Both the position numbers and the translations under genes were made by a program. DNA of 64,000 nucleotides from Candidatus Melainabacteria bacterium (GTDB lineage Bacteria > Cyanobacteriota > Vampirovibrionia > 2-02-FULL-35-15): positions 5,675 to 69,674 of the forward strand of contig JAHFBF010000004.1 of assembly GCA_023250195.1 (NCBI GenBank). The letters run 5' to 3'. Positions 18,422 through 64,000 of this stretch are shown here, piece after piece (position 1 is the stretch's first letter; each line of letters starts with the position of its first letter). A model generated the notes under the pieces. That model made no database searches. It had not been told where the DNA came from and worked only from the letters and a program-made list of their open reading frames with translations.

Positions 18422-19328
18422 AGAGTATTTTTTTTGGTTTAAGCATGCAGTTCTCTGTTAACAAACCAATACCGATTAATCTATCATTGTTATCCAATAT
18501 TTGTAAGTTTTTGTTTATGCTTGTCATAAAAGAGGATGAAATCTTTATCTCCCGACCATGAACTATCTCAATTATTTGCTCAGAATCTATGGATAATTTT
18601 TCAAGTCCTAATATTTCTTGAGGCAAAATTAAATGCTTAGAGATATTGCTGCTATTTATTAATTCAGGACTTATACTAGTCTCAATTAAAAGTTTATTTC
18701 CAATTTTTATTCTTTCAAGTTTTGATAACATTGCACAGGTATTAAGAATATTTCCAAGATCTCGTGCAATTGATCTTATATATGTACCGCTTGAACAATG
18801 GATTTTCAACTGTAGGTATCGGTCTTGACTAGCACCTACAGTAATTGAATAAATCTCAACTTCACGTTTTTTAAGATCATCAGTTGAAAGTTGGTTTTCA
18901 CGAGCTAATTTATATGCCCTTGTACCATTAATATTTATTGCTGAAAATGCCGGTGGCTTTTGTTTTATTTTCCCGATAAAGTGTTTTAATTTTTCCGTTA
19001 TTTCATTAATTGATGGGATATATTCCGATTTTTTTATAACTTTGCCAGTAATATCATCTGTATCAGTCCCAATTCCAAAGGTAACTTCAGCTAAATAAAC
19101 TTTATCTGAAGGTAAATACTCAAATAACCTTGTAGCATTACCAATACCAATTAATAAAACCCCGGTTGCAAATGGATCAAGTGTACCGCTGTGTCCTATT
19201 TTTTTAATGCCAAGAGATTTGCGCAGCATCGCAACAACGTCATGGGAAGTACAGTCAGCAGGTTTGTTTATGTTTAGGAATCCAAAGAAATCTAGCATAA
19301 AATTTATTATAGTACTTGTCATTCCCAA
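18414..19328 (-). CDS. truB: tRNA pseudouridine(55) synthase
   Basis: GFLNINKPADCTSHDVVAMLRK...GHSGTLDPFATGVLLIGIGNATR. The true start is probably the internal Met at about 19298, because 19318-19396 is a MITE. Confidence 0.9.
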   Translation of the reverse strand: MGMTSTIINFMLDFFGFLNINKPADCTSHDVVAMLRKSLGIKKIGHSGTLDPFATGVLLIGIGNATRLFEYLPSDKVYLAEVTFGIGTDTDDITGKVIKKSEYIPSINEITEKLKHFIGKIKQKPPAFSAININGTRAYKLARENQLSTDDLKKREVEIYSITVGASQDRYLQLKIHCSSGTYIRSIARDLGNILNTCAMLSKLERIKIGNKLLIETSISPELINSSNISKHLILPQEILGLEKLSIDSEQIIEIVHGREIKISSSFMTSINKNLQILDNNDRLIGIGLLTENCMLKPKKILYA

Positions 19329-19396
19329 CTTGATTGGGAATCCAGATTATGAATTAAACGTAACACATACTGGATTCTCGCTTCCGCGGGAATGAC
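19318..19396. repeat. MITE-like repeat family D (GTCATTCCC...GGGAATGAC with sub-hairpins)
   Basis: gtcattcccaacttgattgggaatccag...ctggattctcgcttccgcgggaatgac. Confidence 0.65.
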
Positions 19397-19404
19397 AAGA
19401 AATA

Positions 19405-27184: not shown

Positions 27185-27230
27185 ATCTTCGAATTCTTTT
27201 CACCCCCCCATAACGCAATAAGTTATTATC

Positions 27231-27268
27231 CAGGGACAGGTTTGCATTTATAGCAAACCTGTCCCTGG
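27231..27268. repeat. perfect 15-bp-stem hairpin CCAGGGACAGGTTTGCatttatagcGCAAACCTGTCCCTGG
   Basis: Seen in the sequence. It lies downstream of ispH on the minus strand. Confidence 0.55.
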
Positions 27269-27492
27269 TTATGAGCTGCATAGAAACAGCGAAATAATCT
27301 GCGTAGCAGTTATTTCGCGTTTTAGAAAGTTCCCATTTGTTAGGGAGAATTTACCTTGGATTAGTTGAGTTTTTAACCATTTTCGCTCTAGAAATAAATA
27401 ACTTTATAAACATGCTTGCATTGTTTTTTATGATGATATACTACTTCTTTGTAAAAAAGTTCTTTTCGGTAAGACTTTATAAGGAGTAAAAT

Positions 27493-28184: not shown

Positions 28185-28784
28185 ATGATAAGAAATTCAA
28201 TTTTTTTAATTGCTGTTATATCTTTACTTGTTCTGTATTCATCTAAAGACATTGCTGCTCAAGCAGCAGCCACTGTTCCTGTCAACGTTACTGTAAATGG
28301 AGCTTTGGTTATAACAGATGCTTCAAATGATTCAATGGCGGGTGCAAATCCAACTATAAATGTCAATTTATCAGTTACTCCTGATCTTGGTGCAGCTACT
28401 GTTACTGGTCAAGCAAACTTCAGAGTCCGTACAAATAGAAATGCATGGAGACTTACAGCTCAAAGGACTGTCTCTAATGCCGGTGGCACTGGACTTGCAG
28501 ATACAGACGTATCCTTAACGGTTGCAAAATCCGCTGGCTCAACAGGAAATGCAAATGCAGGAGCACTGGTGGCACCATTTACAGCCTCGACTACCTTGAA
28601 TAGTATTCCAACTGCAACCAGTGTAGATGTAGTAAGTGGAACTGCAAAAACATCAACTGCAAAAGATGGTGCAAACACAAATAATTATTTTCAGGTAAAC
28701 ACAACCTATGGAGTAGCACCAGACTTTTTCTACACACCGGGTACGTATAGTACAACAATTACATATAATTTAGTCTCACCATAG
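28185..28784 (+). CDS. secreted pilin-like protein, paralog 1 of 5 (putative fibre subunit)
   Basis: Signal peptide. Conserved blocks ATVPVNVTVNG.LVI.DA.ND, NFRVRTNRN.WRLTAQRT and C-terminal PDFFY.PGTYSTTITYNLVSP, the last resembling the G-Y-x-T-h-T-V terminal beta-strand of Csu/spore-coat-U-type pilins. Confidence 0.5.
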   Translation: MIRNSIFLIAVISLLVLYSSKDIAAQAAATVPVNVTVNGALVITDASNDSMAGANPTINVNLSVTPDLGAATVTGQANFRVRTNRNAWRLTAQRTVSNAGGTGLADTDVSLTVAKSAGSTGNANAGALVAPFTASTTLNSIPTATSVDVVSGTAKTSTAKDGANTNNYFQVNTTYGVAPDFFYTPGTYSTTITYNLVSP

Positions 28785-28865
28785 AAATAAATTCCTATTT
28801 ACTATCATTTTAGATCTCCGAAGTATTAAGACAGGAGCAAATCATCATAAGATTGGAGGTCTGAA

Positions 28866-32017: not shown

Positions 32018-32617
32018 ATGTTAAAACAAACGCGAGGTTTATTACTAGTATTACTTTTACTTTGTGCAAATTCAGTAGAATTGCCAGAGGTAAAAGCAGC
32101 AGCTTCTGTACCATTGGCTGTTACAGTTAACGGTTCACTCGTTATTTCTGATGCTGACAATGATGCAATGGCTGGAGTAAATCCTACAAAGAATGTTAAT
32201 TTGACTGTAACGCCTGATCTTGGACAGACAATACAAAGTGGAAATGCCAACTTTAGGGTAAGGTCAAATCGTTCAACTTGGAGGCTTACAGCTCAGAGGA
32301 CAGCTTCTGATGCTGGTGGTACGGGTATTACCGATGCGGATTTGCTGGTTGACATTGCAAAATCAGCCGGTTCAAATGCAAATGCAAATGCTGGTACATT
32401 AGTATCTCCATTTACCGGGCAAACCAACTTGTCAAGTATTACCACTGTAGCTGCTGTAGATGTTGTTAACGGAACTGCCAAAACATCATCTGCAAAAGAC
32501 AATGCTAATGCCAACAACTGGTTTCAGGTAAGCACTACATACAGCATCCAACCTGACTTTTTCTATGCACCGGGAACGTTTAGTTCTACAGTAACTTACA
32601 ACCTGGTTTCTCCATAG
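32018..32617 (+). CDS. secreted pilin-like protein, paralog 2
   Basis: Same conserved blocks as 28185..28784, with C-terminus TVTYNLVSP. Confidence 0.5.
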   Translation: MLKQTRGLLLVLLLLCANSVELPEVKAAASVPLAVTVNGSLVISDADNDAMAGVNPTKNVNLTVTPDLGQTIQSGNANFRVRSNRSTWRLTAQRTASDAGGTGITDADLLVDIAKSAGSNANANAGTLVSPFTGQTNLSSITTVAAVDVVNGTAKTSSAKDNANANNWFQVSTTYSIQPDFFYAPGTFSSTVTYNLVSP

Positions 32618-32627
32618 AAGTTGTTTT

Positions 32628-32818: not shown

Positions 32819-33421
32819 ATGAGATTAAACAAATCTTTTATCTTCACATTAATTGTGCTGTTGATTTTATTTACAGTACCAATAAAAACGTTTTCCCAAT
32901 CAGCAACAGTACCAATAAATATAAATGTTAACGGAACACTTACAATTTCTGATGCCTCAAATGATTCAAGCGCAGGTAAAAATCCAACCATAAACGTAAA
33001 TCTCTCTATAACGCCGGATCTTGGAGCTGCACCTGCTACAGGAAATGCAAACTTCAGGATAAGAACAAATAGATCTAACTGGAGACTCACTGCACAAAGG
33101 ACTTCTGAAGTTGATACAGGCCCAACAAACATTGTGGCAATGGACATAGCATTATTAGTTACTACTCAAGCCGGGACAAATGCAAATGCAATGGCTGGAA
33201 CACTTGTAGCTCCATTTACCGCAACAACAGACTTAAGCAACATATCAACAGCTGCACCGGTAGATGTAGTCAGCGGTACAGCTAAAACATCAACAGCAAG
33301 AGATAATACAAATACAAACAATTACTTCCAGATTAATACTCAATACAGCATTCTTCCTGACTTCTTCTTCCAGCCAGGGACCTGGAGAACAACCATAACC
33401 TATAATCTGGTTAGCCCTTAG
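32819..33421 (+). CDS. secreted pilin-like protein, paralog 3
   Basis: Conserved blocks, with C-terminus TTITYNLVSP. Confidence 0.5.
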   Translation: MRLNKSFIFTLIVLLILFTVPIKTFSQSATVPININVNGTLTISDASNDSSAGKNPTINVNLSITPDLGAAPATGNANFRIRTNRSNWRLTAQRTSEVDTGPTNIVAMDIALLVTTQAGTNANAMAGTLVAPFTATTDLSNISTAAPVDVVSGTAKTSTARDNTNTNNYFQINTQYSILPDFFFQPGTWRTTITYNLVSP

Positions 33422-34307: not shown

Positions 34308-34312
34308 ATTAT

Positions 34313-34466
34313 GTCATTGGAGGATATCTCAAAACTCTGTCTATGGAGATTAGCTATTTTTCTGACAAAATAGAAAGAGTGAAAGTAGCTTGTCATTCCC
34401 GCGAAAGCGGGAATCCAGTATCGGTAGCAGTCTTGTCTGGATTCCCTGGTCGAGCCAGGGAATGAC
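34313..34466. repeat. compound MITE (E unit plus D unit) between paralogs 4 and 5
   Basis: gtcattggaggatatctcaaaactctgtctatgg...gtcattcccgcgaaagcgggaatccag...ctggattccctggtcgagccagggaatgac. Its reverse complement matches 48759-48912. Confidence 0.7.
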
Positions 34467-34506
34467 ATTTATATTCAGCCATCATTCAAAGACTTATAAT
34501 TAACAT

Positions 34507-42585: not shown

Positions 42586-45222
42586 ATGTTTGAGAGATTT
42601 ACAGAAAAAGCAATAAAAGTAATCATGTTGGCCCAGGAAGAAGCAAGAAGACTTGGACATAATTTTGTTGGTACAGAACAAATTTTACTTGGCTTAATTG
42701 GTGAGGGCACAGGGATTGCTGCCAAAACTTTAAAGTCAATGGGAGTAAATTTAAAGGATGCAAGAATTGAAGTAGAAAAAATTATCGGACGTGGCAGTGG
42801 TTTTGTAGCAGTTGAAATCCCATTTACTCCAAGGGCAAAAAGAGTGCTTGAACTTTCATGGGAAGAAGCCAGACAACTTGGACATAATTATATAGGAACA
42901 GAACATTTATTATTAGGATTAATAAGGGAAGGAGAAGGGGTTGCTGCAAGGGTACTGGAAAACCTTGGTGTTGATCTCACAAAAGTCAGACAACACATTA
43001 TCAGACTCCTTGGTGAAACAGGAGCTACTGGTGTACAGGCAGGTGGTACAGGCACTGGAAGATCTAAAACTCCTACACTTGATGAATTTGGAATTAATCT
43101 GACTCAGTCTGCAACTGAAGGAAGACTTGATCCTGTAGTTGGTCGTGAGAAAGAGATTGAAAGAGTAATTCAAATATTAGGAAGAAGAACAAAAAACAAT
43201 CCTGTTTTAATCGGTGAGCCAGGGGTAGGAAAAACTGCAATTGCAGAAGGACTTGCTCAAAAAATTGCAGTTGGAGATATACCGGATATTTTACAGGAAA
43301 AAAGAATTGTTCAGCTTGACATTGGGCTATTAGTAGCAGGTACAAAATACCGCGGTGAATTTGAAGAGAGATTAAAAAAAATAATGGATGAAATTCGTGG
43401 TGCAGGTAATGTAATTATTGTTATAGATGAGTTGCACACATTAATTGGTGCTGGTGCAGCTGAAGGAGCTATTGATGCTGCAAACATTTTGAAACCTGCT
43501 TTATCACGCGGTGAACTACAGTGCATTGGTGCAACAACACTGGATGAATACAGAAAACATATTGAAAGAGATGCTGCACTTGAGCGCAGATTCCAGCCGG
43601 TAATGGTAGATGCACCGTCAGTAGAGGAGTCTATTGAAATATTACGAGGCTTAAGACCAAAATATGAAGAACATCACAAGCTTTTAATTTCAGATGCGGC
43701 ACTAATCGCAGCAGCTACATTGTCTGATAGATATATTAGTGACAGATACTTGCCTGATAAAGCAATTGATCTGGTTGATGAATCAAGCTCACGTGTCAGG
43801 CTTCGTGCAAGCTCTCTCCCTCCGGAAGGAAAAGAACTGGAAAAAGAACTTCGTGCAATAAGCAGACAAAAAGAGCAGTCAATTCGTTCTCAAGAATTTG
43901 AAAAAGCAAGTCAGCTTAGAGATAAAGAAGCAGAATTAAAAGATCAGATTAAGGAGATTCAAGCAAAATGGAAAGAGACCCAGGATAAAAATAGGCCTGT
44001 GGTTACTGATGAGGAAATTGCTCACATAGTAAGTTCGTGGACTGGAATTCCAGTTGGTGATCTTACACAGGGGGAAACAGAAAAACTACAAAAACTTGAA
44101 CAGATTTTACATGAACGTGTAATTGGTCAGGATGTAGCAGTAACCGCTGTTGCACGGTCTATTAAACGTGCACGTGTAGGGCTTAAAAATCCTCAAAAAC
44201 CAATTGGTACATTTATGTTCTCAGGTCCAACTGGTGTTGGTAAAACTGAGCTTGCAAAAGCACTTGCATCTTTCTTTTTCGGTACTGAAGAAAATATTAT
44301 CAGGGTTGATATGTCAGAGTACATGGAAAAACATACTGTCAGTAAACTCATTGGTTCACCACCGGGTTATGTAGGATATGGTGAAGGTGGTCAACTTACT
44401 GAAGCAGTGCGCAGAAGACCATATAGTGTGGTTTTATTTGATGAAATTGAAAAAGCACATCCAGATGTATTTAATATCTTATTGCAAATGCTGGATGATG
44501 GTCGTTTGACTGATTCTAAAGGTCGTGTTGTAGACTTTAAAAATACAATTATTGTAATGACCAGCAATGTCGGTGCAAGAAATATAGAGTCTCTGCAGCC
44601 ACTTGGTTTTTCAACAGAAATATCCCAGGATCCAGAAGCTATATATAAACGAATTAAATCAACAGTTACAGATGAAATGAAAAAGACATTTAGACCAGAG
44701 TTTTTAAATAGGCTTGATGACATTATTATCTTTAAACACCTTACAAAAGATGAATTACATAAGATATTGGATTTGATGGCAAAAGAGCTAAGCAAACGTG
44801 TTAATGAAAAGAACATGGATTTAGAACTCTCACCGGAAGTAAAAGACAAGCTCGTGAAAGATGGATACAGCCAGGCTTATGGTGCTCGTCCGTTGAGAAG
44901 AACATTACAAAAATTAATAGAAGATGCACTTGCTGAAGAAATACTTGCAGGGAGATTTAAAGAAGGTGACAAAATTAGAGCAGTTGCAAAACCAAAAGAT
45001 CAAGTACCAGAAGGAGCAGCAATATTTAAAGATGATGCTTCAATAACAGTAGCCATGACAGGTGATAAAAACAAAAAAGATGATGGTCTTGTAATTATCT
45101 TTGAAAAATGTGGCACTATGGAAATTAAAAACAAATACGAAAAGAAAAATGATATCCCACCTAAAATAGAAATAGTTCCTAAGGAAGAGCCTCCGAAAGA
45201 AACCGCTAAAGCCGGGTCTTAG
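42586..45222 (+). CDS. clpC: ATP-dependent Clp protease ATP-binding subunit ClpC, with a C-terminal extension of about 60 aa
   Basis: Two Clp_N repeats, two AAA+ modules ([16 protein letters not shown]), a UVR-like linker, then a tail ...[31 protein letters not shown]. Confidence 0.9.
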
Positions 45223-45226
45223 CCTC

Positions 45227-46069
45227 TTATAGATTATGTATTCTCACAATATCAACCCCATTTTTAATTACTAATTTAATCATCTCTTTTGATTTTTTTT
45301 CAATATCTTCTTCAGGAAACAGTGTTTTAATAAATGATTTTCTTGATGGACCTGCTAAAATCGGAAATCCAAGCAATTTAAGTTCTTTTAAATTCTCAAG
45401 TAATAATAAATCTTCTTCTGGTGTTTTCCCAAAACCAATTCCAGGATCAATGATTATGTTTTCTTTTTTAATACCGTTATCAATAGCGTATTGAGTTTGC
45501 TTTTGCAGCCAAGCATAGACTTCTTGAATAATAAGAGATGAGAGGTGAGAGATGGGAGATGGGAATTTTTTTTCCATTCTGATCCATGATCTCTGATCTC
45601 TAATCTCTGGTTTTGTAGCCGGTATTCCTTTATTATGCATAATCACAATTGGGCAATTGCTCTTTACTGCAACATTTACCATATCAGGGTCCATTGTTAA
45701 TCCTGAAACATCATTTATCATTTTTGCCCCTGCATTTAAGGCGAGCTGTGCAACGTTTGCTTTATAGGTATCAATTGAAATAAAAATATCCGGATATCTT
45801 TTTTTTAATTCATAAATTACAGGAATAACTCTTTTTAATTCTTCTTCTTCTGAAAGGAGCTCTGCTCCAGGTCTTGTAGACTCACCGCCAATATCAATAA
45901 TATCTGCACCACCATTAGTTAACTTATCAACATGTTTAACAGCATCTTCAATCTGAAAACATTTGCCACCATCTGAAAAAGAATCAGGTGTGACATTAAG
46001 AATACTCATAAGGACAGGTTTTTTAGAGTTAAGTAAGCTATTTATATTGTTTGATGTTTGAGCTTTCAC
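45227..46069 (-). CDS. folP: dihydropteroate synthase carrying an in-frame insertion of a repetitive element
   Basis: LMSILNVTPDSFSDGG, DIGGESTRPG and DPGIGFGK. The nucleotides at 45532-45610 are a GAGAT-rich imperfect palindrome encoding PEIRDQRSWIRMEKKFPSPISHLSSLI, about 18-20 aa longer than the E. coli FolP loop. Confidence 0.85.
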   Translation of the reverse strand: MKAQTSNNINSLLNSKKPVLMSILNVTPDSFSDGGKCFQIEDAVKHVDKLTNGGADIIDIGGESTRPGAELLSEEEELKRVIPVIYELKKRYPDIFISIDTYKANVAQLALNAGAKMINDVSGLTMDPDMVNVAVKSNCPIVIMHNKGIPATKPEIRDQRSWIRMEKKFPSPISHLSSLIIQEVYAWLQKQTQYAIDNGIKKENIIIDPGIGFGKTPEEDLLLLENLKELKLLGFPILAGPSRKSFIKTLFPEEDIEKKSKEMIKLVIKNGVDIVRIHNL

Positions 46070-48582: not shown

Positions 48583-48912
48583 GTCATTGCGAGCCGAGCA
48601 AAGTGAGGTGTGGCAATCCCAAACTATTTACATGAAAACGATCGGGATTGCTTCGTCGCTGACCGCCACGCTTCGCTCGCGGCTTCCGCTCCTCGCAAGA
48701 GGCTATCTCAAAACTACCACTATGGAAATGCAACATTTTTCAGCATAAAGTCAACAATGTCATTCCCTGGCTCGACCAGGGAATCCAGACAAGACTGGTA
48801 CCGATACTGGATTCCCGCTTTCGCGGGAATGACAAGTTACTTTCACTCTTTCTATTTTGTCAGAAAAATAGCTAATCCCATAGACAGAGTTTTGAGATGA
48901 GCTCCAATGACA
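48583..48912. repeat. compound MITE array (C unit, E unit, D unit, E unit)
   Basis: cgtcattgcgagccgagc...ctcctcgcaaga; gtcattccctggctcgaccagggaatccag...ctggattcccgctttcgcgggaatgac; ...ccaatgac. It translates to the spurious WIPAFAGMT ORF. Confidence 0.7.
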
Positions 48913-48919
48913 TAGCAAA

Positions 48920-57841: not shown

Positions 57842-57855
57842 AATTAATAAGACAT

Positions 57856-57930
57856 GTCATTCCCTGGCTCGACCAGGGAATCCAGGCAAGACGGCTACTG
57901 ATACTGGATTCCCGCGAAAGCGGGAATGAC
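57856..57930. repeat. family-D MITE-like repeat
   Basis: gtcattccctggctcgaccagggaatccag...ctggattcccgcgaaagcgggaatgac. Confidence 0.7.
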
Positions 57931-57982
57931 ACATTCTATTTAAAAATCATTTTCAAGATAATTATGTTAGAATACTTACGTT

Positions 57983-62286: not shown

Positions 62287-62308
62287 AAGCGCGATTAATC
62301 GCGCTTCT
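62285..62308. terminator. hairpin AGAAGCGCGATTAATCGCGCTTCT downstream of the sigma factor
   Basis: Perfect palindrome sharing the core CGCGATTAATCGCG with 42448-42475. Confidence 0.45.
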
Positions 62309-62816
62309 ACTGATAGGCATTTACCTTAATAGACTTAAATGTTTGCCCGTCACTGTATAAAACAGTCCTAATACCTATTACACCTACATGATGTTTTTTC
62401 CTTTTATCTAACTGCATTTCATAACTTATAACACCAGGTTCAAAAAAATGACTTACAAAATGAGCATTTTTAATTTGTTTTCTGTACCTTCCACGTTCTT
62501 TCCTTGGATAAAGTATATCTGCAATAACATTCGCTTCTTTTTCTGAAGTCATCTCTTTTTTAACTTTATCTCCTCTTGGTCTTGCTGCTTCAGAAAATGA
62601 TTTGCCATCTCTGTAAATAGCCTCTACCTGCCAGCCATATAAAGGGAAATTATATGTTTTCTTACCAGAGAAATTTCTATTGCTTTCAGAAAATTGTTTT
62701 GATGATAATTCACTGCCGTATTGTCTTTGATTTTCTTTTACACTATTTCCAAGTCTTGCTTGTGCAGGGCATGCAAAAAGAAATAGAGAAACAAGAACAT
62801 AAAGAAGTAATCTCAT
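62307..62816 (-). CDS. secreted hypothetical protein
   Basis: The signal peptide MRLLLYVLVSLFLFACPAQA starts at the internal Met. The longer track ORF to 63020 runs into a MITE. Confidence 0.45.
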   Translation of the reverse strand: MRLLLYVLVSLFLFACPAQARLGNSVKENQRQYGSELSSKQFSESNRNFSGKKTYNFPLYGWQVEAIYRDGKSFSEAARPRGDKVKKEMTSEKEANVIADILYPRKERGRYRKQIKNAHFVSHFFEPGVISYEMQLDKRKKHHVGVIGIRTVLYSDGQTFKSIKVNAYQ

Positions 62817-62834
62817 AACGTTAACAGATTGCCA

Positions 62835-62942
62835 TGTTGCTGAGGAGTTTACCCTGAGCAAAGCGTGAGGGCAGCTCCTCGCAATGACGTGATTCGATAT
62901 CAATTTTGTGAGATTCTTCGTCGCTTTGCTCCTCAGAATGAC
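62835..62942. repeat. C/B hybrid MITE
   Basis: ctcctcgcaatgacg...gagattcttcgtcgctttgctcctcagaatgac. Confidence 0.6.
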
Positions 62943-62952
62943 AAATATCTCC

Positions 62953-64000
62953 TCATGCTTCATGTTTCCCTTTAGCCCAGACGCCAACACTAAAAATATA
63001 AGCATAACAAGCAAATGCAATTAACATGCCAATATACCAATTTGGTTTTTGAATTGAACCTGTGATTTCAGCTACTTTAGCAATCAATGGTCCAACTACT
63101 GCTCCTCCAATAATTGCAGTACAAAGTATTCCTGAAACTATTCCGGAATATTCTTTTTTATATGACTCAATTGCTAAACCATAAATAGATGGAAACATGA
63201 TTGAAATAAAAAAACCAATCATTGGAAATGCCCACAAAACAATCGTTAAATTTTTTGCAAATATTGCACAGGCAAGTGAAGCAGCAGCACCGGAAATATA
63301 AATTTTAATTGCTCTCTTTGTCGGTGTTCTATCTAAAACAAAGCTTCCCAATAATCTACCAAGAAGTAATCCCAGCCAGTAATTGGCAATGGTTGAATTT
63401 TTTATAGCCTCTGCATTTGTTCCTAAAACATTTGTAACTTTATGGATGTCTTCCAGGAATAAACTAATATTATTTGCAACACCTACTTCTACCCCTACAT
63501 AAAGAAAAATTGCAAGCGCATACATAATCATAATCGGATCTTTTAGAAGAATTACAAAGCTTTTCTGTGACTTCTGCTCTTTAGTGCTGGAAGCTTTTTC
63601 TTCAGGATATTTTGGAAATGCCAGACAAAACAACATTACTATCGAAACGATTGTAAAAATCCAGTAAGTATAATTCCATTCCAATCCTCTCAATTTAACA
63701 AAAGTAACTACATGAGGAGCAATATACGATCCAACTCCAAATAGCACCATAAACAAAGTAAGATTTCGTGAATATTTCTCCGGGTTGCTTACTTCTTTAA
63801 CAAGCGGGTTTGCAGAAACCTGAATAGCAGTAATGCCAACACCGCAGATAAACATTGCAATCATATTTGAATAATATCCCGGTACACTTGCAAACATTAA
63901 TACGCCAATTGTCGTAATTAAAGAACCGAAAATTAAAGTAAACTTTGTCCCGGATTTGTTTATCAAAACCCCAAATGGGACAGAAGTAAGTCCATAGGCA
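62953..64000 (-). CDS. MFS transporter; 5' end lies beyond the window
   Basis: More than 12 TM segments. The frame stays open upstream of the TTG at 63966 to the window edge (..AYGLTSVPFGVLINK..). Confidence 0.7.
   Translation of the reverse strand, partial: AYGLTSVPFGVLINKSGTKFTLIFGSLITTIGVLMFASVPGYYSNMIAMFICGVGITAIQVSANPLVKEVSNPEKYSRNLTLFMVLFGVGSYIAPHVVTFVKLRGLEWNYTYWIFTIVSIVMLFCLAFPKYPEEKASSTKEQKSQKSFVILLKDPIMIMYALAIFLYVGVEVGVANNISLFLEDIHKVTNVLGTNAEAIKNSTIANYWLGLLLGRLLGSFVLDRTPTKRAIKIYISGAAASLACAIFAKNLTIVLWAFPMIGFFISIMFPSIYGLAIESYKKEYSGIVSGILCTAIIGGAVVGPLIAKVAEITGSIQKPNWYIGMLIAFACYAYIFSVGVWAKGKHEA

Follow-up and report, generated by a model that had tools for sequence, protein, structure and literature searches.

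An in-frame quasi-palindromic heptamer hairpin in loop 5 of the dihydropteroate synthase gene folP of a Candidatus Melainabacteria bacterium

Heptamer repeats are over-represented in bacteria, and polymerase slippage has been proposed as their source (PMC4679880, PMC4692102). In Xanthomonas, convergent pairs of GGGAATC arrays that are able to form stem-loops occur 70–75 times per genome, and between related genomes their position is conserved while their length and sequence are variable (PMC4692102). Palindromic DNA has also been found inside genes. Rickettsia palindromic elements lie in frame in unrelated housekeeping genes and are reported to be compatible with the fold and function of the products (summarised in PMC10969869), and bacterial transposable elements of the miniature inverted-repeat type (MITEs), such as ERIC, QMITE1 of Coxiella and the MITEs of Anabaena, are short hairpin-forming non-coding DNAs that occur inside open reading frames (ORFs) and give in-frame fusions (PMC10969869). 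In-frame palindromes in housekeeping genes are usually seen as an oddity of Rickettsia, and heptamer repeats are usually regarded as features of intergenic DNA. Both kinds, the inverted heptamer repeat and the palindromic insert in frame, are already known, and the element described here combines them. It is an inverted pair of tandem heptamer repeats that lies in frame in loop 5 of folP, the gene for dihydropteroate synthase (DHPS), in a stretch of 64,000 nucleotides from a Candidatus Melainabacteria bacterium (GenBank assembly GCA_023250195.1, contig JAHFBF010000004.1, positions 5,675–69,674 of the forward strand), which as a whole is called the window below and to whose numbering all window positions refer.

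The element is a quasi-palindromic hairpin of 75 bp at 45534–45608, as delimited by inverted-repeat, folding, Tandem Repeats Finder and relative comparisons. The initial annotation of this DNA had described an in-frame, GAGAT-rich imperfect palindrome inside folP at 45532–45610, which is confirmed here with slightly narrower borders, and the peptide that it gave for the insert is identical to the translation of the folP ORF across the element (...GIPATKPEIRDQRSWIRMEKKFPSPISHLSSLIIQEV...). The hairpin encodes residues E155–L179 and also takes in the last base of the codon for Pro154. It is an imperfect inverted repeat with 33-nt arms, 73% complementary, around a T-rich spacer of 9 nt. Arm 1 (45534–45566) is purine-rich on the plus strand (28 of 33 bases), where it reads AGAGATG AGAGGTG AGAGATG GGAGATG GGAAT, and appears on the mRNA as (C)CATCTCC CATCTCT CACCTCT CATCTCT, encoding PSPISHLSSL. 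The spacer is TTTTTTTCC on the plus strand (45567–45575); on the mRNA it reads, together with the adjoining arm bases, GGAAAAAAAATTCC and specifies part of EKKF. A loop of the GGAAA(A) type recurs at the matching site in relatives. Arm 2 (45576–45608, minus strand) reads AGAGATT AGAGATC AGAGATC ATGGATC AGAAT on the mRNA and encodes EIRDQRSWIRM. Each arm therefore consists of four to five tandem AGAGATN heptamers, and Tandem Repeats Finder reports the two corresponding period-7 arrays, at 45534–45561 (AGAGATG, 4.0 copies) and 45578–45609 (4.6 copies). As single-stranded DNA the element folds with −13.3 kcal/mol (z = −2.6 against shuffles), and as folP mRNA with −23.3 kcal/mol (z = −2.9). The three-unit pattern AGAGATNAGAGATNAGAGAT matches four times in the 64 kb, always within the element, compared with 0.11 matches expected, and none of 100 shuffles reached four. 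Foreign origin was also considered on the basis of composition and gave no signal: the G+C content of the element is 40% against 34.7% for the window, and 23% of the 75-nt windows are equally or more G+C-rich, so that the element lies within the normal spread.

Compared with the Xanthomonas GGGAATC repeats and the cyanobacterial heptamer repeats (GGGGAYT in Nostoc; those of Calothrix are named STRR), the folP element is alike in its 7-nt units, in the number of about four units per array, and in the two convergent arrays that could form a stem-loop. However, those repeats are described as genome-wide families of one unit, mainly intergenic and depleted in coding regions, whereas the folP element is single-copy in 64 kb and lies in frame in an essential-type gene; moreover, its AGAGATN unit is not G-quadruplex-forming. 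With the Rickettsia palindromic elements it shares the position in frame within a housekeeping ORF, at a site where the structure is permissive, but those elements are about 150 bp long, multi-copy, specific to Rickettsia and marked by a conserved peptide, whereas the folP element has 75 bp, is heptameric, and has neither a second copy in the window nor a related peptide. The likeness to in-frame MITEs is that MITE-like elements occupy loop 5 of folP in two relatives (P0008 and P0011); the terminal inverted repeats, conserved interior, target-site duplications and many copies that characterise MITEs were not found for the window element. REP elements (from repetitive extragenic palindromic) and REPINs are GC-rich palindromes of 20–40 bp with a GTAG/CGTC tag, high copy number and a REP-associated tyrosine transposase (RAYT). 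The folP element, in contrast, begins AGAGAT and lacks this tag at both of its ends; its G+C content is 40% and it is present in a single copy, and a RAYT gene was not searched for. In the literature searched, the coverage of which was incomplete, no paper was found to treat heptamer hairpins of either Chloroflexota or Melainabacteria, and none to describe such hairpins in frame.

The host gene is an intact ORF at 45227..46069 on the minus strand, assigned to folP from the ORF list, Pfam PF00809, matches to DHPS structures and AlphaFold2/Foldseek. Its product of 280 aa is covered end to end by the pterin-binding domain PF00809 (1–244 of 244, 251 bits, E = 1.6e-74), and solved DHPS structures in the Protein Data Bank match it, the best being that of Bacillus anthracis (E = 1.9e-58) and the others weaker. 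All 51 alignment columns that are invariant among 32 homologues are kept in the window protein, including D100, N119, D120, M144, H145, D208, K244, R276 and H278. An AlphaFold2 model built on these 32 homologues has a predicted template modelling (TM) score of 0.83, with 142 residues at a predicted local distance difference test (pLDDT) value of 90 or above, and Foldseek aligned it to the DHPS of B. anthracis, E. coli and Y. pestis with TM scores of 0.72–0.79, that is, a TIM-barrel fold like that of DHPS. The insert is placed between strand 5 (residues 141–144) and helix 5, where the mean pLDDT falls to 48–49 over residues 151–170 and is 67 over residues 171–180; the model thus shows it as a low-confidence excursion from a confidently predicted DHPS barrel. 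Immediately upstream of the insert lies the conserved motif GIPATKP (45608..45628, minus strand), with G148, I149 and P150 invariant in the 32 homologues, and the hairpin stem starts at the last base of its Pro codon, while the helix IQEVYxWLQKQ stands after the insert. The alignment thereby shows the family-conserved residues to be intact on both flanks. We favour the view that FolP is an otherwise normal dihydropteroate synthase whose gene is under selection.

The nearest FolP homologues, one of them named Candidatus Melainabacteria, are 73–79% identical to the window protein, and the gene order ETF (electron transfer flavoprotein)-folP-clpC is common to the window and its relatives. In the six nearest relatives loop 5 has 8 residues (PDKSNKNI or similar) compared with 27 in the window, and on the DNA level the window gene is longer by exactly 57 nt, or 19 codons, than those of P0002, P0003 and P0010, which agrees with the insertion of about 19 aa proposed initially. 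A loop of the same length free of the repeat was not seen in close relatives. The comparison with E. coli FolP, to which a loop of about 8 residues had been ascribed, was loose: that number is true of the nearest relatives, whereas E. coli DHPS is shorter by 18 residues across the part that aligns, and B. anthracis DHPS has 10 residues where the window protein has 35. In the alignment with the three insert-free relatives, the 75-nt element replaces about 18 nt of an AT-rich loop, and no flanking direct repeat or target-site duplication was detected against them, although at 73–79% identity a decayed duplication is possible.

The site itself is highly variable. Among 119 homologues, the loop-5 segment that starts at GIP and runs to the following strand has between 34 and 70 aa, and at least five unrelated insert types occur at loop 5 within the shallow clade around the window. 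In P0023 it holds a heptamer hairpin of AGTTGCA-type units, a GGGGAAA loop and inverted units (−14.6 kcal/mol), and in P0022 a heptamer hairpin of CAGTGGA-type units (−21.9 kcal/mol). P0007 has a 14-nt tandem with a hairpin, weaker but alike in register and loop centre, though without the Pro codon. P0011 has a palindrome of about 110 nt, CGTCATTGTGAGGAGCGAAG...CTCCTTGCAATGACG (−24.6 kcal/mol), P0008 an element of about 100 nt, GTCATTCCCTGG..CCAGGGAATCCAG....CTGGATTCCCGCTTTCGCGGGAATGAC, and P0028 a palindrome with an 8-bp stem, together with an octamer tandem in a second variable loop. In addition, protein sequences point to a likely heptamer hairpin at both variable loops of P0071, and in the short-loop relatives P0078 and P0088 the loop starts with PEIRK, a hint that a local GAGATTAGA seed may be present at the site.

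The hairpins of the window, P0022 and P0023 have more in common than their location. All three take the last base of the conserved Pro codon as their first (CC|AG...) and stop immediately ahead of [A/T]ATT. They have 4–5 units per arm, agree in their heptamer register and are alike in their GGAAA(A) loop, and yet their unit cores differ (AGAGA in the window, AGTGG in P0022, AGTTG in P0023). Shared borders, register and loop with different units suggest a structure resident at the locus rather than unrelated inserted copies. P0022 and P0023 have hairpins of equal length on the same axis, with 14 identical pairs and six compensatory double changes, among them G to T at position 5 of every unit, answered by C to A on the opposite arm in three of four units. 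This pattern is best read as concerted evolution of a resident hairpin, or else as repeated growth from the same local seed. On these grounds we consider it probable, with some reserve, that the window element is a heptamer quasi-palindrome resident at the site of a highly variable DHPS loop, where it evolves through slippage and through hairpin-templated correction while selection keeps the frame open. Replication slippage within each heptamer array would let the hairpin grow and shrink in place, hairpin-templated (template-switch) correction between the arms would homogenise the quasi-palindrome, and selection would remove variants with stop codons or frameshifts. We infer that the element is a passenger, useless to the enzyme, and that it has not been copied here recently by transposition from a dispersed family.

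The reading frame has left a footprint in the element. Enumeration showed that no perfect (AGAGATN)4-loop-inverse hairpin keeps an open frame on either strand, and that the only frame-opening choices at unit position 7 are C in the left arm with C or T in the right, both of which are mismatches. At this position the element has C/C in three units and T/C in one, and these make up four of its nine arm mismatches; they are the periodic ones that an open folP frame needs. Among the 18 possible corrections of the nine mismatches, three create stop codons (S161*, W162* and S177*). The 73% complementarity is therefore at least partly the price of the open folP frame, and the periodic frame-opening mismatches indicate that folP is under selection. 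Furthermore, since a perfect AGAGATN hairpin has no open frame, a perfect copy could not have inserted intact without killing the gene.

Several points weigh against residence at the locus. A neighbour-joining tree, which has no support values, puts six insert-free relatives between the window and P0022/P0023, so that a resident ancestral hairpin needs several independent losses or replacements. The shared borders could instead come from a site-specific insertion preference. GAGATTG hairpins of Chloroflexota (see below) recur within one genome at many loci, also in genes, and by analogy a spreading mechanism that exists there could have acted here. Finally, the coverage of this genome is 64 kb, and other copies may lie elsewhere.

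A possible, if rather doubtful, alternative is that a mobile selfish palindromic element, like a MITE, a REP or a Rickettsia palindromic element, was inserted in folP and survived by landing in frame in a permissive loop. The absence of the insert from the nearest relatives agrees with it. Within the window, however, a scan of the whole sequence found the folP element as the sole period-7 array, and two-unit GAGAT patterns outside folP number 4 against 4.07 expected by chance. In related Melainabacteria, about 70 kb of DNA (L001, L003, L005, L006 and L207–L212) likewise contained no heptamer array outside loop 5 of folP. An exhaustive phmmer search with the 30-aa insert peptide gave no match among 1.84 billion protein representatives, a weak negative for so short a query against cluster representatives only; a 40-aa insert query against an index of 5.8 billion proteins gave no candidate but is no evidence either way, as the source protein itself was not recovered there. 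In a metagenome scan for FolP relatives, the matches listed were at most 48% identical and none came from the clade. To the single copy, the lacking counterpart of the peptide and the frame argument are added the missing target-site duplication, with 18 nt of loop replaced rather than interrupted, and the borders, register and loop shared with different-unit hairpins of other lineages. The initial description of the insert as a selfish repeat tolerated by an essential enzyme thus holds in that a repeat able to form a hairpin lies in frame in a loop and leaves folP intact, but the selfish or mobile nature of this particular element is unsupported.

What does receive support is the wider idea that palindromic elements enter this loop, and it also speaks for mobility in general. 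The palindrome family in loop 5 of P0008 has four copies in the window, of about 78 nt, MITE-like (GTCATTCCC..CCAGGGAATCCAG..CTGGATTCCCGCTTTCGCGGGAATGAC) and apparently intergenic, at 19318–19397, 34391–34468, 48757–48834 and 57854–57931, with an in-frame member in the P0008 folP; compared with these four copies of a bona fide MITE-like family, the GAGAT element stands alone. The family found in P0011, of the CGTCATTG..GAGGAGC..GCAATGACG type, has one copy in the window at 62860–62945, in a minus-strand ORF of 237 aa (62307–63020) near its N-terminus; this may be another palindrome in frame, unless the ORF is over-called. The peptide RHCEE(R/Q)S(D/N)EAIS suggests that this family is probably also present in folP loop 5 of P0058 and P0062. 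Loop 5 of folP in this clade accepts truly dispersed palindromic elements. As a separate observation, two of the MITE-like copies lie each in one member of an inverted repeat pair of 160 bp, 96% identical (34310–34469 and 48756–48914), which brackets a 14.3-kb segment with clpC, folP and the ETF genes and is a possible inversion substrate.

Hairpins built in the same way are numerous in other phyla, and this too favours a mobile origin. A scan of species-representative genomes for GAGATNNGAGAT...ATCTCNNATCTC gave at least 120 stretches. Among the matches listed, most are from Chloroflexota (Anaerolineae, Ardenticatenaceae, Caldilineaceae) and some from Thermoanaerobaculia, Gemmatimonadota and Bacteroidota; no Melainabacteria are among them, from which absence from the phylum does not follow. 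The common architecture of the listed matches is arms of mostly 2–5 GAGATNN units, a loop and inverted units, with a median loop of about 12 nt and a median length of 58 nt. A third (33%) of 112 hairpins tested lie in stop-free frames of at least 200 aa, compared with 69% of random control positions, and several were verified inside real domains, namely the HHH_6 domain of DnaE, CarB, a helicase C-terminal domain, a histidine-kinase ATPase domain and DUF2298. In dnaE of Ca. Leptofilum (L041:4711–4761) the hairpin corresponds to a clean gap of 19 residues against T. aquaticus DnaE, and in carB of Chloroflexi UBA9854 (L123:3293–3340) to 30 extra residues between E. coli residues 634 and 636. Further in-frame GAGAT hairpins were seen in conserved domains of essential Chloroflexota genes (L104, L118, L056 and L106), and the copy in L118, GAGATGGGAGATGGGAAATTATCCCATCTCCCATCTC, is close to arm 1 of the window.

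The folP element resembles these hairpins in its GAGAT units, short loop and inverted units. The difference is that in those genomes one unit, mostly GAGATTG, is used at many loci, and that GAGATTG arrays are free of stop codons in all six frames, whereas the window element is unique in 64 kb and its unit is unable to form a perfect open-frame hairpin. Within one genome, moreover, the copies share their arms while their loops are unrelated. In the 11-Mb Chloroflexia genome OY969916.1 (L011, L013, L033, L056, L120 and L122), for example, the arm unit GAGATTG/A is shared and the loops are unrelated in sequence and length, and shared arms with unrelated loops indicate that these are not simple copies of one master element. 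A speculative and, in our judgement, rather unlikely extension is that heptamer hairpins form a widespread and seemingly undescribed class of self-homogenising DNA hairpins in coding loops of essential genes (FolP in Melainabacteria; DnaE, CarB, helicases and kinases in Chloroflexota), perhaps made by a dedicated mechanism and with units shaped by stop-codon avoidance. Such a mechanism might consist of the symmetric addition of heptamers at both ends of a break, or of fold-back priming of a heptamer array, and would explain the shared arms with unrelated loops within one genome. If this were true, stop-free heptamer hairpins would be a regular source of new protein loops.

We regard it as improbable that the hairpin or its peptide is functional, either as a selected mRNA or DNA structure (for translation pausing, RNA stability or as the site of a heptamer-binding protein) or as a loop that alters the enzyme, for example its sulfonamide sensitivity. 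Pairing survives the six compensatory changes between P0022 and P0023, and some hairpin stands at folP loop 5 in many lineages. Loop 5 of TIM barrels lies on the catalytic face, and small loop insertions are a known route to sulfonamide resistance in DHPS, which favours a function as background only. However, compensatory change in DNA palindromes is also explicable by mutation alone, the closest relatives manage with the 8-residue loop and no hairpin, the types of insert at this site are related neither in sequence nor in length, the arms in the window are just 73% complementary, and one strain variant differs from the window protein solely at P170T, inside the insert. Selection for mRNA structure is ruled against by the lack of a consistent strand asymmetry: across four hairpins RNA folding showed no consistent preference for the sense strand, and for the window element the antisense RNA folds better (−34.2 against −23.3 kcal/mol). 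A role as a terminator, promoter or known RNA was likewise considered and rejected, with no promoter or terminator signal and no Rfam family match at the element.

An assembly or sequencing artefact, conceivable in that misassembly can happen at hairpins and short tandem repeats, was rejected and has a negligible chance, as the frame is intact, exactly the same 280-aa protein is encoded on at least six independently assembled contigs from five samples, and two contigs (L001, and L002 from another sample) carry folP DNA identical to the window. Apart from this, L002, identical across folP, has 24 differences within 170 nt of the ClpC C-terminal tail (window 44853–45016, in the 3' part of clpC at 42586–45222, plus strand), which may reflect a tail that varies among strains or a chimeric end of the contig.

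The locus is of interest in that, within a shallow clade, hairpin DNA of at least five kinds has gathered in one loop of an essential-type enzyme, including heptamer hairpins that change all their units and the opposite arm together. It offers a natural system for studying how protein loops arise and are reshaped through hairpin DNA and simple-sequence repeats, whether the symmetry of palindromes is kept by mutation or by selection, and why heptamer hairpins of Chloroflexota reach dnaE and carB. The loop-5 site of folP is also a sensitive strain or lineage marker, and DHPS loop inserts of this type are not to be taken as functional or resistance-related without a test.

A few further features were noted in folP and elsewhere in the window. 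In P0028 (folP at L212:10001–10840) the second variable loop of FolP, after VIPV..E, carries the octamer tandem, with GCAGAGAA twice and GCAAAGAA twice, and inserts of 10–35 residues occur in this second loop in several other relatives, some with a 7-residue periodicity (e.g. P0071). The sole other long hairpin in the window, at 27216–27282, has 30-nt arms with 22 paired positions and the core AAACCTGTCCCTGG, and may be a terminator. In addition, a segment of about 0.5 kb is present in three diverged copies (65–69%) at 28261–28786, 32094–32619 and 32927–33412, which are probably neighbouring paralogous genes.

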